In this document: positions 12,001 to 21,000 of the stretch, one piece after another
Position numbering within the stretch: the first letter of the stretch is position 1
Layout: each line of letters opens with the position of its first letter
Virus record (IMG/VR): IMGVR_UViG_2728369393_000007
Direction: 5' to 3' (one strand)
Source: a virus
Taxonomy: Duplodnaviria > Heunggongvirae > Uroviricota > Caudoviricetes
DNA length: 64,000 nucleotides
Position numbers: made by a program

Positions 12001-15000
12001 AGGGCTGGAAGCTGGGCGGGGCCATCAAAACCACCGAGCGCAAACTGGCTGAGGGAGTGCTGGTGCATGGTGGTCAGCCACTGATGGCCTGGTGCGTTGG
12101 CAATGCCCGGGTGGAGCCTAAAGGTAACGCCATTCTTATCACCAAACAGGCCAGCGGACGGGGAAAAATTGACCCTCTGATGGCGCTCTTCAATGCGATG
12201 TTCCTGATGTCCCTGAATCCGGAACCGAAAAAGAAAGCGTATGAGGTTTTTTTCATATAACCCTGCTCACCCTGTAACCATCATGAACCGCTGCGGCGGT
12301 TTTTTTATTTTCAGGAGGCTGATGTGACTCTTAAACGGGCCTGTTCCCTGCTGACGGTGAAATCCTTCAGTGAGGATGAACGGGTGATCACCGGGATTGC
12401 GTCAACGCCTTCTCCGGATCGGGATGGTGACATCCTGGAGCCGGAGGGGGCGGAGTTTGGCAGTACGATCCCGTTTCTCTGGCAGCATGACCATTCCCGC
12501 CCTGTAGGCCAGTGTACGGTGCGTCGGGTCAGGGAAGGGCTGGAAATCACGGCAATGCTGGTGAAGCCGGAGCCGGGGATGCCCTCCCAGATGGCAGCCC
12601 GGCTGGATGAGGCCTGGGCTGCCATTAAGACCGGGCTGGTCAGGGGGCTTTCTGTGGGCTTCCGGCCCCATGAATACACTTATCTGGACGGAGGCGGACT
12701 GCATTTTCTGCGCTGGGAGCTGATGGAGGTGTCTGCCGTCACCGTGCCCGCGAATGCGGAATGCACCATCCGGACCATTAAATCTTTCGACCGCCCGTTT
12801 TCTGCCGCGTCCGGCAACCGGAGACCGGTGGTGAAAATCGCATCTTCTGCCGGCGCTTCGGCACAGTCAATAACCTCTTTTCATAAGGAAAAGTCAGCAA
12901 TGAATACTGGTGAACAGATTAAAAGTTTTGAAAACAAGCGTGCGGCGCTGGCAGCCTCCCTTGAGGAGATCATGAACAAAGCCGCAGAGGAAGGCCGCAC
13001 ACTGGATGTGGAAGAGGAAGAGCACTACGACAACACCGCAGCGGAAATCCGTCAGGTGGATGCGCACCTGAAGCGTCTGTGTGAACTGGAAACCAGTAAG
13101 GCCGCCACGGCACAGCCGGTGAAACAGGCCGGTAACGGGAATGTGGCCACGGTGGCTTCAGCGCCGGTGATCCGTGTTGAGCAGAAACTGGATAAGGGGA
13201 TTGGCTTTGCCCGCTTTGCCAAATCATTGGCTGCGGCTAAAGGTGTCCGCTCTGAGGCCCTGGAAGTGGCCCGTCGTCAGTATCCGGATGACAGCCGTCT
13301 GCACCATGTTCTGAAATCGGCGGTGGGGGCAGGGACCACCACGGACCCGCAGTGGGCAGGCAGCCTGTCTGAATATCAGGAATATGCGCAGGACTTTATT
13401 GATTACCTGCGTCCGCAGACCATTATCGGGCGATTTGGTCAGGGCGGGATCCCTGCACTTCGTCTGGTGCCGTTCAATATCCGCGTGCATGCCCAGGTGT
13501 CCGGCGGTGCTGCCGGCTGGGTGGGGGAGGGTAAGGCCAGACCCCTGACGAAGTTTGATTTTGAGTCCATCACCTTCAGTCATGCGAAGGTGTCGGCCAT
13601 TGCGGTACTGACGGAAGAGCTGATCCGCTTTTCCAGTCCGGCAGCTGATGCACTGGTCCGTAATGCGCTGGCAGAAGCGGTGGTGGCGCGTCTGGACACA
13701 GACTTTGTGGACCCGAAAAAAGCTGCAGTGGCAGATGTCTCCCCGGCGTCCATCACCCATGATGTGAAGGGCACGGCATCAACCGGTAACCCGGATGCGG
13801 ATGCCGAGGCCGCGTTTGGCCAGTTTGTGACGGCAAGTCTGCAGCCCACTGGTGCTGTCTGGCTGATGTCCAGCACGAATGCCCTGGCGCTGTCCATGCG
13901 TAAAAATGCGCTGGGTCAGAAGGAATATCCGGACATGACCCTGCTGGGCGGGACCTTTCAGGGGCTTCCGGTGATTGTCTCCCAGTATGTGGGTGACCAG
14001 CTGGTACTGGTGAATGCACCGGATATTTATCTGGCGGATGACGGCGGTGTGGCAGTGGATATGTCCCGTGAAGCGTCACTGGAAATGCAGTCTGAGCCGG
14101 GCGGCGACAGCACCACACCGTCGCCGGTGGAGCTGGTTTCCATGTTCCAGACCGGCAGCGTGGCCATCCGTGCGGAGCGCTGGATCAACTGGCGTCGTCG
14201 CCGTACTGCGGCGGTGGCGGTGATCACCGGTGTGAACTACGGCAGTGCGTCCGGCGGCTGAGTCTGATGAGGAGGGCGGGAGGTGAGAGCGTCCCGCAGT
14301 AACTGATGGCAAAAATCCGATATCTGCAGGGTACACATGATGCCCGGCCCGGGGATATCCGGGATGTCGCACAGCCGTGTGCGGAGGTGCTGGTTCGCCT
14401 GAGGAAGGCGGAGTACATCACAGCGCGACGTCCGGTGGGTCAGAAAAAGAAACATGATGCGGAGCATAGCGAATGTGGAACTTTTTGCGACGAACCCGAA
14501 AAAACCAGAAATCAGGACGTGATGTAAAAGAGGTGGGCTGGACCAGCCTGTTTCAGGCGGTGGCTGAGCCCTTTGCCGGCGCCTGGCAGCAGGGTGTGAA
14601 AGCCGATCCGGAAAGTGTCCTCTCCTTTCATGCGGTGTTTTCTTGCATTTCGCTGATATCCCAGGATATCGCCAAAATGCGGCTGCGCCTGATGCAGACG
14701 GATACACAGGGGATCCGCCGTGAAAAACGGCAGGGGGATATTGCCCGTCTCTGTCGTCGTCCCAATGCACAGCAGAATCGTATCCAGTTTTTTGAACTGT
14801 GGCTGAACGCCAAACTGCGTCACGGCAATACGGTGGTGCTGAAAATCCGTAACTCCCGGGGGCAGATCAAAGAACTGCGTATTCTGGACTGGAGCCGGGT
14901 TGAACCTCTGGTGGCGGATGACGGCGAGGTGTTCTATCGCATCACGCCGGACCGGAACTGCGGGATCACGGAGGCGGTGACGGTGCCTGCCCGGGAAGTG

Positions 15001-18000: not shown

Positions 18001-21000
18001 GCTGGCGAAGCTGAAGTACCAGACAGCGCTGGGTGAGCTGAAAACCCTGACGGAGATGCAGAAGCAGGAACTGCTGCGTAACGCGGCCCTGATTGACCAG
18101 CAAAAAATCCGGGAACAGTTGCGATCCCGGGAAGAGACCCTGAAGAATGATAATGTGGCTGCGCGTGCATCAAATGAAGCCGAACTGCTGGGGTACGGGC
18201 AGGGAGAACGAGCCAGGGAACGCATGCGGGAGTTGCAGCAGATCCGCGACAGCTTCCGCCAGAAGGATGCGGACCTTCAGTCTCAGTATCAGACCGGGGA
18301 TATCAGTGAGGATTTTTACAGACAGGCACGGGCACAGAACGCGCAGTATCTGAGCGAACGCCTTAAGGACCAGGCAGCCTTTTATGCCGAATCGGATGTG
18401 CAGCGTGCGGACTGGCAGAAAGGGCTGCAGGAGGGATTCAGTAACTGGGTGGATAATGCGTCCGATTACGCCTCTCAGGCAGCACAGCTGGCGACTGAGG
18501 GGATTTCAGGACTGGTGAATAACATCACGGAGATGCTGAACGGAAACAAAGTGGAATGGCGCAACTGGGCCTCATCCGTACTGCAGGAAATCTCAAAAGT
18601 CCTTATGAATGCCGCGATTGTCAACGGGATCAAGACGGCGGCAAACGGTATGTCCGGTGCAGGAGGATTTCTTGGCAGCATTGGTGACTGGCTGGGCGGT
18701 GCGGTGGTCAATGCAAAAGGCGGCGTGTATACCTCGGCAAACCTGAGCGCGTACAGCAACAGCATTGTGGATACGCCCACGTACTTTGCGTTTGCAAAAG
18801 GGGCCGGGCTGATGGGGGAAGCCGGACCTGAAGCCATTATGCCCCTGACCCGGGCGGCGGATGGCTCGCTGGGCGTACGCGCCGTGGGCAGTATGAACGG
18901 CAGTGCTGGTCTGGTGTATTCCCCGGTCTACCACATCGCCATTCAGAATGACGGGGCTAACGGACAGATAGGGCCGGAGGCGGCAGGCAGTCTTGTGCAG
19001 CTGATTGACCAGCGGGTGCAGGCGGTGATGCTGTCCATGCGACGTGACGGAGGAATGCTGAGTGGCTGAGATAAAAACGCTGCATCTGGTCCCGCGTGAA
19101 GGGATGCAGGTGAGTGAGAAGCCGTCGGTGGTGAGGGTGCGGTTTGGTGACGGTTATGAACAGCGCCGCCCCACAGGGCTGAATCCTCAACTGAAGACGT
19201 TTCAGGCGGTGTTCCGGGTGACGGATGAGTCAACCCGGTGCTGGCTGGATGAATTTTTATCCTGGCATGGTGGTTACCGTGCCTTTTTATGGCGACCGCC
19301 GAAACATAACCGGATGGTCAGGGTGGTATGCCGTGAGTGGAGCGTCACGGATAACGTCCGGTACAGTGATTTCAGTTGTACGATTGAGCAGGTGGTGAAC
19401 TGATGCAGGACATTCATGAAGAAAGTCTGAACGAGTCGGTTAAATCAGAGCAGTCACCGCGGGTGGTGCTCTGGGAAATTGACCTGACGGTGCAGGGTGG
19501 TGAGCGGTATTTTTTCTGCAATGAGCTGAATGAAAAAGGGGAGCCGGTCACCTGGCAGGGGCGGAAGTACCAGGCATACCCGATTGACGGCAGTGGCTTT
19601 GAGATGAACGGGAAGGGCAGCAGTGCCAGACCGTCGATGACGGTGTCCAATCTGTTCGGTCTGGTCACCGGGATGGCGGAAGACCTGCAGAGTCTGGTGG
19701 GGGCCACGGTGGTCCGCCGCCGGGTGTATGCCCGTTTTCTGGATGCGGTGAATTTCGTTGCGGGCAATCCGGAGGCAGACCCGGAGCAGGAGCTGAGTGA
19801 CCGCTGGGTGGTGGAGCAGATGTCGCAGCTGACAGCCATGACGGCCTCGTTTGTGCTGGCCACACCGACCGAGACGGACGGAGCGCTGTTTCCCGGTCGC
19901 ATCATGCTGGCGAACACCTGTATGTGGGATTACCGGGGAGAGGAGTGCGGTTTCACCGGCGGGGCGGTGGCGGATGAGTTCGACAACCCCACCACGGATA
20001 TCCGGAAGGACAGATGCAGTAAATGCATGCGCGGGTGTGAGATGCGCGGCATGGTGGCTAATTTCGGCGGTTTCCTTTCCATTAATAAACTTTCGCAGTA
20101 AATCCCGTTTTATGACACAGACTGAATCAGCGATTCTGGCGCATGCCCGGCGGTGTGCGCCAGCGGAGTCGTGCGGCTTCGTGATAAGCACCCCGGAGGG
20201 CGAACGGTACCAGCCCTGTGTGAATGTCTCCGCAGAGCCGGAGGCGTATTTTCGTATTGCACCGGAAGACTGGCTGCGGGCAGAGATGCAGGGGGAGATT
20301 GTGGCACTGGTCCACAGTCATCCCGGTGGTCTGCCCTGGCTGAGCGAGGCCGACCGGCGGCTGCAGATAAAAAGTGCACTGTCCTGGTGGCTGGTCTGCC
20401 CGGGGGACATTCATAAATTCCGCTGTGTGCCACATCTGACAGGACGGCTCTTTGAGCACGGGGTGACGGACTGTTACACGCTGTTCCGGGATGCCTACCA
20501 TCTGGCGGGAATTGATATGCCGGATTTTGAGCGTGAGGATGACTGGTGGCGTAACGGTCAGAACCTTTACCTGGACAATATGGCGGTCACCGGCTTTTAC
20601 CGGGTGCCCCTGTCCTCTGCACAGGCGGGCGATATCCTGCTGTGCTGCTTTGGCGCATCGGTGGCCAATCATGCCGCCATTTACTGCGGCAACGGTGAAC
20701 TGCTTCACCATCTGCCTGAACAACTGAGTAAACGGGAGAGGTATTCCGAAAAATGGCAACGACGAACGCATTCAGCCTGGCGTCACCGCCACTGGCACGT
20801 ATCTGCCTTCACGGGGATTTACAACGATTTGGCCGCCGCCTCAGCCTGTACCCGAACACGGCGATTGTGGGGCTGCAGGTGGATGCGGAGCAGTTTGGCG
20901 GTCAGCAGATGACGGTGAACTACCATATCCGCGGTCGCATCATCCAGGTACCGTCAAACTATGACCCGGAAAAACGCACGTACAGCGGCATCTGGGACGG

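Follow-up and report, generated by a model that had tools for sequence, protein, structure and literature searches.

A very probable single deletion between portal and tape measure in a defective ompW prophage of enterohaemorrhagic Escherichia coli O145:H25

Prophages integrated at ompW in enterohaemorrhagic Escherichia coli (EHEC), the PPompWs, carry effector genes upstream of a 21-bp attB at which Stx phages integrate, and all those examined have been reported as defective through insertion sequence (IS) insertions, gene inactivations and multiple deletions (Nakamura et al., PLoS Pathog 2021, PMC8112680). In O145:H25 strains, a phage is integrated inside the PPompW, forming a prophage within a prophage (PMC8112680). 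A working relative of the same head lineage is Lys8385Vzw (MT225100.1), an Stx1-converting phage that was induced with mitomycin C, plaque-purified and seen to be a siphovirus by electron microscopy (PMC7946995). Here, we analyze the late operon of the first of two prophages, hereafter prophage 1 and prophage 2, in a 64,000-nt stretch of IMG/VR record IMGVR_UViG_2728369393_000007 (Caudoviricetes), referred to as the window. The element corresponds to prophage P14 of the O145:H25 strain CFSAN004176, located at ompW and described as BP-4795-like; the sister strain CFSAN004177 carries its counterpart, P02 (PMC5567499, supplement). That paper uses the name BP-4795 for this prophage type, which comprises Stx1/Stx2 lambdoid phages with HK97-like head/tail modules.

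The plus strand of prophage 1 between 8.7 and 23.6 kb is a lambdoid late operon in which, as the sequence reads, a 480-residue portal open reading frame (ORF) (14473-15915, +; Pfam Phage_portal, 4.8e-81) runs directly into a 1078-residue ORF (15833-19069, +), the two overlapping by 83 nt with no gene between them. The former is 99.3% identical over residues 1-450 to the 454-residue portal of PPompW_EH2201, an O145:H28 prophage (tblastn), and the latter carries the tape-measure domains TMP_3, Phage_HK97_TLTM and Tape_meas_lam_C, all above their cut-offs. Between portal and 1078-residue ORF, genes for the connector, head completion, tail completion, tail tube and G/T chaperones are all absent. 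A reading of the window from sequence only had pointed to this absence and proposed a deletion junction, and on both counts it was right: Pfam and tblastn searches confirm that tail-tube, completion and head-tail joining genes are missing from this interval, and a junction could be mapped to the base against three intact relatives. We therefore consider it very probable (about 0.95) that the missing genes were removed by one clean internal deletion in a decayed lambda-like prophage.

A three-way comparison with the left and right parental sequences of the O55:H7 RM12579 prophage (L003) and PPompW_EH2201 (L004) places the junction at 16039-16040, with no strand assigned, where the two parents share a 2-nt microhomology, TG. 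Read side by side, the left parent has ...GGATGACGCTG before and TGGGGACC... after the breakpoint, the right parent has ...GTGCCTTTG before and CCACCGGA... after it, and the window runs ...GGATGACGCTGCCACCGGA... across it. In the RM12579 prophage, window positions 14281-16040 align to 1-1761 at 99.5% identity and positions 16039-19500 align without gaps to 6001-9462 at 97.9%, leaving 4241 bp missing from the window. In PPompW_EH2201, the left flank ends with 16040 at position 9742 and the right one starts with 16039 at 14145 (4404 bp missing), while in Lys8385Vzw window 11157-16038 aligns to 1348-6230 and the alignment from 16039 onward resumes at 9981 (3750 bp missing). The deletion thus measures 3.75-4.4 kb depending on the comparator, a spread that reflects the variable copy number of a 162-bp tandem repeat in the ORF adjacent to the portal. 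Alignment to complete relatives also corrected the position expected earlier: the junction is not at the portal/tape-measure overlap, as had been supposed, but about 200 bp further downstream, inside the “tape-measure” ORF.

The same breakpoints emerged from wider searches. A megablast of window 12300-19100 against the phage collection matched 95 records; all the head-module matches listed end at query position 3741, which is window 16040, and this breakpoint recurs in more than 20 phage records. Two phage records cover both flanks, but they span about 10.5 kb rather than 6.8 kb, and no record in the phage collection spans the junction. The right breakpoint (query start 500, window 16039) recurs in the 29 genome records listed. 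Among complete E. coli genomes, the flanking sequences occur in 1248 and the junction in 1 of 5426.

Annotation of the relatives gives the content of the deleted interval. It begins with the rest of the portal-adjacent ORF (about 175-390 codons) and closes 79 codons into the tape measure. In between come genes for a head-tail connector, a head closure protein and a member of the HK97-gp10 family, followed for the tail by completion protein gp17, the major subunit, an assembly chaperone and assembly protein T. Pfam assigned the RM12579 proteins from this gap to Phage_connect_1, Phage_HCP, HK97-gp10_like and Tail_completion_gp17 for the joining genes, and to Phage_tail_2 with immunoglobulin (Ig) domains, Phage_TAC_1 (1.5e-60) and Phage_tail_T for the tail. 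Among tail-tube models, Phage_tail_2 alone passed its cut-off, two lambda-like ones falling short of theirs, and the connector was classed as gp6-like. These are exactly the gene classes whose absence had been flagged from the sequence. Prophage 1 has none of the head-tail joining genes (gp6-like connector, head completion, HK97-gp10-like); its tail completion and major tail tube genes are deleted, the window giving no tblastn hit for either; and no G or T chaperone gene precedes the tape measure. Prophage 1 can neither assemble a tail nor attach heads to tails.

We also considered whether the tail genes are hidden in other frames or have moved. A Pfam scan (E≤1) of the nine alternative ORFs in six frames on both strands of 14237-16173 returned nothing near a cut-off, so this all-frame search around the junction disclosed no concealed tail-tube or chaperone domain. 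Relocation is excluded by tblastn: the seven proteins encoded in this interval in an intact relative have no match in the whole window, intact tail-tube and chaperone genes are not found elsewhere in prophage 1, and the only lambda-type V/G/T/H stretch belongs to prophage 2. Hence, the absence stands.

An assembly error, in which a mis-join or collapse conceals a full head-tail and tail-tube module that is present in the real genome, could have produced the same picture. The window comes from a noisy long-read assembly that differs from the E. coli O145:H25 CFSAN004176 chromosome by indels alone, and several related lambdoid prophages could have misled an assembler, four places in CFSAN004176 matching the junction query. 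Over 25 kb, the comparison with CFSAN004176 gave 0 substitutions and six indels (11491-11499, 12446, 15818, 21614, 22263 and 22379), five being single G's in G-runs and one a 9-nt direct duplication; across 9 kb of prophage 2 (52608-61581), there were 40 indels and no substitutions. Each assembly has errors of its own, the capsid gene being open here and “frameshifted” in CFSAN004176, and with so many homopolymer indels single-base frameshifts in this window are unreliable as biology. The junction is another matter. CFSAN004176 has the same junction, the identical 28-nt junction sequence, GGTGGATGACGCTGCCACCGGACACCTG, recurs in four further, independently assembled NCBI genomes, in some of which a short draft contig runs across it, and the exact 1078-residue protein has at least 4 NCBI accessions and occurs on 8 contigs. 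The 28-mer was absent from IMG/VR viral contigs. Besides, the published assemblies were verified against optical maps (PMC5567499), and collapse of a repeat is implausible at a junction that shares only 2 nt. The deletion is real and present in several independent assemblies, and the chance that it is an artefact is negligible.

The C-terminal extension of the portal, which had been taken as a further sign of deletion, has a different origin. A run of four G's (G4) at 15818-15821 (+) shifts the portal frame and generates both a 27-residue extension and the 83-nt overlap. At 15818, the window reads GAGGGGATAC vs GAGGGGGATAC in CFSAN004176, and a motif comparison found five G's (G5) in all eight comparators, namely CFSAN004176, Lys8385Vzw, the RM12579 prophage, PPompW_EH2201 and four junction-bearing assemblies. 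With G5, the portal would be 454 residues long and end in ...AMLRGILRK, with its stop at 15836 in an ATGA overlap with the next ORF, and the portal is called as 454 residues in the four other assemblies that share the junction. The 480-residue form is absent from a collection of about 15 billion proteins that does contain the 1078-residue product. The extension is not a product of the junction, since the G4/G5 difference sits 218 nt upstream of it; it is instead a one-base homopolymer difference private to this assembly. A consensus error would be the likeliest cause because the published O145:H25 genomes date from early PacBio sequencing (PMC5567499) and prophage 2 shows 40 indels with no substitutions. 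The overlap of about 80 bp noted earlier is therefore correct for the sequence as it stands, at 83 nt, and hinges on a G4 run that is G5 in the comparators. At the overlap of portal and next ORF, the sequence reads CGA-AAA-TGA/ATG (15825-15836), with a Lys codon on A-AAA right before the stop, and a -1 slip there yielding a portal fusion is conceivable.

The 1078-residue ORF is a product of two genes. Its first 69 codons (15833-16040, +) are the start of the portal-adjacent repeat protein (tblastn, 92.8% over residues 1-69 of 461; MTERELSIIRALGEEF...), and the remainder (16041-19069, +; chimera residues 70-1078) corresponds in frame to tape-measure residues 80-1089 of 1089 (tblastn, 98.2%) and holds the Pfam tape-measure domains. 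Residues 1-71 match phrog_8767 and positions 455-525 of phrog_2271, which is a portal-region family and not a tape-measure one. A native full-length N-terminus is consequently missing, residues 1-79 of the 1089-residue homologue being replaced by 69 from the portal-adjacent ORF; the earlier description of a 1078-residue tape-measure gene holds for the domains and fails for the first 69 codons. The portal-adjacent ORF and the tape-measure gene share a frame in PPompW_EH2201 and Lys8385Vzw, and relative to these two the missing length (4404 and 3750 bp) is divisible by three; therefore, the scar is a single open frame. On the equivalent stretch of CFSAN004176, PGAP annotated one frameshifted “phage portal protein” pseudogene.

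In its intact form, the portal-following ORF (“second portal ORF”) is 245-461 residues long in relatives, with a weak CBM_5_12-like C-terminus and, in PPompW_EH2201, 4.3 copies of the 162-bp tandem repeat. Even where the prophage is intact, PGAP merges the portal and this ORF into one “frameshifted” portal gene, and PHROG 2271 likewise covers the two. The regions concerned are 9535-10920 of L004 and 193-2777 of L003.

The deletion itself would have arisen by illegitimate recombination at the 2-nt TG microhomology, with loss of about 4.2 kb of the late operon, running from codon 70 of the portal-following ORF to codon 79 of the tape measure. An IS-mediated deletion at 16039/40 is ruled out, as no IS is present at the junction, and so is a repeat-mediated one, as the parents share only 2 nt. 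In the parental sequence, the 162-bp tandem repeat begins 9 nt past the left breakpoint, entirely inside the deleted part, and no link between it and the mechanism was found. Recombination at the level of microhomology is what the junction suggests, and the 1078-residue ORF would in turn be a pseudogene-like fusion with no functional arrangement.

No finding contradicts this account, but two points temper it. The mechanism is deduced from a microhomology of just 2 nt, and the chimera is fully open over 3.2 kb and, in the G5 assemblies, keeps its ATGA coupling to the portal, so that it may be expressed and may function. One could go further and propose that the chimera is expressed and has been kept for a new role, for instance as a poison subunit acting against the tail assembly of superinfecting or co-resident phages, all the more since its 1078-codon frame is unbroken in all six assemblies that carry it while neighbouring genes bear lesions. 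An in-frame junction is nonetheless expected by chance one time in three, making it weak evidence for selection, and the assemblies are so nearly identical (0 mismatches) that there has been no time for decay and the openness of the frame says nothing about selection. The deletion creates no new promoter or domain, and the junction is restricted to one lineage. Were such a role true, the scar would no longer be junk but a factor domesticated against phages or for competition between prophages; we regard this role as extremely unlikely, and its specific form, a late-expressed dominant-negative tape measure that would poison the tail assembly of related lambdoid phages, as just as improbable. 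A pseudogene-like fusion left by the deletion remains our reading of the ORF.

An unusual module order, with the protease-capsid gene before the portal, had been offered as the alternative to a deletion. The order terL, protease-capsid, 73-residue ORF and portal is indeed present in prophage 1 by Pfam and PHROG, yet it is also the order of Lys8385Vzw, the RM12579 prophage and PPompW_EH2201 and is common to dozens of Stx and lambdoid phage records (more than 90). It is normal for this lineage, including a plaque-forming phage, and is thereby ruled out as an explanation. Lys8385Vzw is the informative case, since a virion-forming phage with exactly the order of prophage 1 would have spoken against a deletion. 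It is colinear with prophage 1 and 91-96% identical from terL through the start of the portal-adjacent ORF and over the tape measure, M, L and K. In contrast to prophage 1, it retains the 3750 bp that encode the connector, head-tail adaptor, two more structural genes, major tail subunit, chaperone and T-like protein, that is, all the missing genes, and it makes plaques and siphovirus particles (PMC7946995), which prophage 1 cannot.

The late operon carries at least four inactivating lesions, of which the scar between portal and tape measure is one. Upstream, the terminase small subunit gene (8772-9335, +) is intact, with 91.5% identity over 188/188 residues to TerS of PPompW_EH2201 (tblastn; PGAP of CFSAN004176). 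The large terminase is not: an IS600 element (IS3 family, 1264 bp; 9893-11156, +) splits terL at codon 187, flanked by a 3-bp target duplication, GAA, its ends being read directly and its transposase identified by PGAP and by Pfam rve/HTH_21 on 10295-11113. The N-terminal fragment (9332-9892, +) is 100% identical by tblastn over residues 1-187 of 554 and flagged by PGAP as “missing C-terminus”, and the C-terminal one (11157-12260, +) covers residues 187-554 at 98.6% (tblastn; Pfam TerL_nuclease). IS600 has expanded to more than 50 copies in O145:H25 (PMC5567499), with which its presence in terL fits. The head genes that follow are a 645-residue prohead protease-major capsid fusion, open here (12324-14261, +; Pfam Peptidase_S78 and Phage_capsid; 98.8% over 646 residues to the PPompW_EH2201 homologue by tblastn), and a conserved 73-residue ORF between capsid and portal (14306-14527, +; phrog_829, 7e-36), which has the same place in all relatives.

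Downstream of the tape measure, the tail-tip genes M, L, K, I and J are an incomplete set. The lambda M-like minor tail protein (19062-19403, +; Pfam Phage_min_tail, 3e-28) and minor tail protein L (19403-20101, +; Pfam Phage_tail_L, 1e-90) are intact, whereas the tail tip protein K (JAB and NlpC/P60; 20112-20862, +) falls short of its last codons, matching residues 1-246 of 248 by tblastn and called by PGAP a C40 peptidase “missing C-terminus”. K ends at a second deletion (20849-20862), a 14-nt microhomology at which about 1455 bp were lost together with gene I and the first ~215 codons of J (blastn against the records L003, L006 and L008). What is left of the host-specificity protein J is an internal fragment (20863-22846, +; blastn to J of Stx2_95; PGAP “missing N-terminus and C-terminus”), which aligns to 15732-17732 of Stx2_95 (L008) before the match jumps to 19745. 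That jump marks a third deletion (22844-22846), with a 3-nt overlap, which fuses the middle of J to a C-terminal tail-fibre segment and removed the J C-terminus and lom.

These lesions bear on whether prophage 1 might still work, alone or with a helper, the missing functions being encoded elsewhere in the element or supplied in trans by other lambdoid prophages. Prophage 2 keeps lambda-type G, T and H sequences (50812-54207), and 14 prophages are reported for the O145:H25 strains, among them an Stx2a phage at yecE (PMC5567499). However, the seven missing proteins have no homologue anywhere in the window by tblastn, the V tail-tube gene of prophage 2 is reduced to its last 36 nt, and its G/T/H region is broken here into many frames. 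With terL split, I deleted and J cut at both ends, the functions to be supplied in trans would go far beyond tails. The survey for a complementing prophage covered one sibling in CFSAN004176, P02, which has the same head type and is even more decayed, with no tail module. Additionally, no packaged DNA was detected for the PPompWs tested, those of the O145:H28 strains 112648 and 12E129 and of E2348/69 (PMC8112680), and no IMG/VR phage contig carries the junction. A working or helper-dependent prophage 1 is thus very unlikely.

The sibling P02 (ynfE; L013, CFSAN004176 296272-299955) has its terL split by IS600, its capsid gene truncated and its portal gene truncated by another IS600 that adjoins lom, a parallel IS600-driven decay of the same module.

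Prophage 1 would accordingly be scored as a non-inducible remnant, and both the 1078-residue “tape measure” and the 480-residue “portal” are to be treated as pseudogene products. The junction is a deletion scar of an ordinary kind, and earlier work had already described this prophage type as defective; it represents no new system or genome organisation and has little significance beyond correct annotation. It does provide an example at base resolution of how effector-carrying EHEC prophages become fixed in the chromosome via microhomology deletions and IS600 insertions. Pools of defective EHEC prophages, of which the Sakai Sp prophages are reportedly an example (Asadulghani and colleagues, 2009), share the small deletions, IS insertions and frameshifts in morphogenesis genes and the retained effector cargo; there is no difference in kind, except that the main IS here is IS600 instead of IS629.

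In its identity, prophage 1 is a defective ompW prophage of the PPompW type, with an HK97/BP-4795-like morphogenesis module, of EHEC O145:H25. The window starts inside the prophage, and its ompW context was read from CFSAN004176, in which (0 mismatches) ompW and a truncated integrase gene lie about 6-7 kb upstream of window position 1; the left end of the element in that chromosome has this truncated integrase and another IS600. Window 12300-16040 is 98.3% identical to at least 10 PPompW records, including O145:H28 ones. As in other PPompWs, the ompW locus, the head genes, the downstream effectors, an occupied 21-bp attB and defects caused by IS insertions and deletions are all found. PPompW_EH2201, in contrast, has no portal-to-tape-measure junction and keeps the whole tail module, and beyond CFSAN004176 the junction turned up in just a few assemblies, all nearly identical to it.

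The 21-bp attB has a single match in the window, with 2 mismatches, at 36404-36424, where 0 are expected by chance; the site lies about 40 nt before the prophage 2 integrase gene (36465 onward). Prophage 2 thus appears to be integrated into the attB of the PPompW rather than standing in simple tandem with prophage 1. Between the tail remnant and attB, a low-GC stretch holds the type III secretion system effector genes nleA (25160-26482, -), nleH1-2 (28304-29215, +) and nleF (29281-29850, +), with nleG and espM1 further on, among integrase and IS fragments and repeated C-terminal pieces of tail fibres. The remnant persists fixed in the chromosome, carrying nleA, nleH1-2, nleF and other effector genes and the attB used by prophage 2, which fits the published picture of defective PPompWs as lasting platforms for effector genes and further phage integration.

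Prophage 2 has undergone losses of its own. It lacks the stx2 region, in agreement with what was published on CFSAN004177 (PMC5567499), which is therefore the probable origin of the window. A large deletion with its junction at 50762 left a truncated DNA methyltransferase gene abutting the final 36 nt of a lambda-type V and took with it the stx region, the lysis genes, all head genes and the tail tube. From 50762 onward, its G/T/H sequences are 97% identical to those of VT1-Sakai and Stx2a phages, the G/T remnants (50812-51556) being split across frames. The same prophage in CFSAN004176 shows a different, non-nested deletion in which the holin gene is joined to mid-H exactly at the record origin, so that the two deletions are either independent events or, in one of the assemblies, an artefact of circularisation. 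Meanwhile, a 906-bp segment in a DUF968-family gene of prophage 2 (48277-49182) is inverted relative to CFSAN004176 at 100% identity; no inverted repeats were found flanking it, which leaves an assembly artefact and an unexplained inversion as the two readings.

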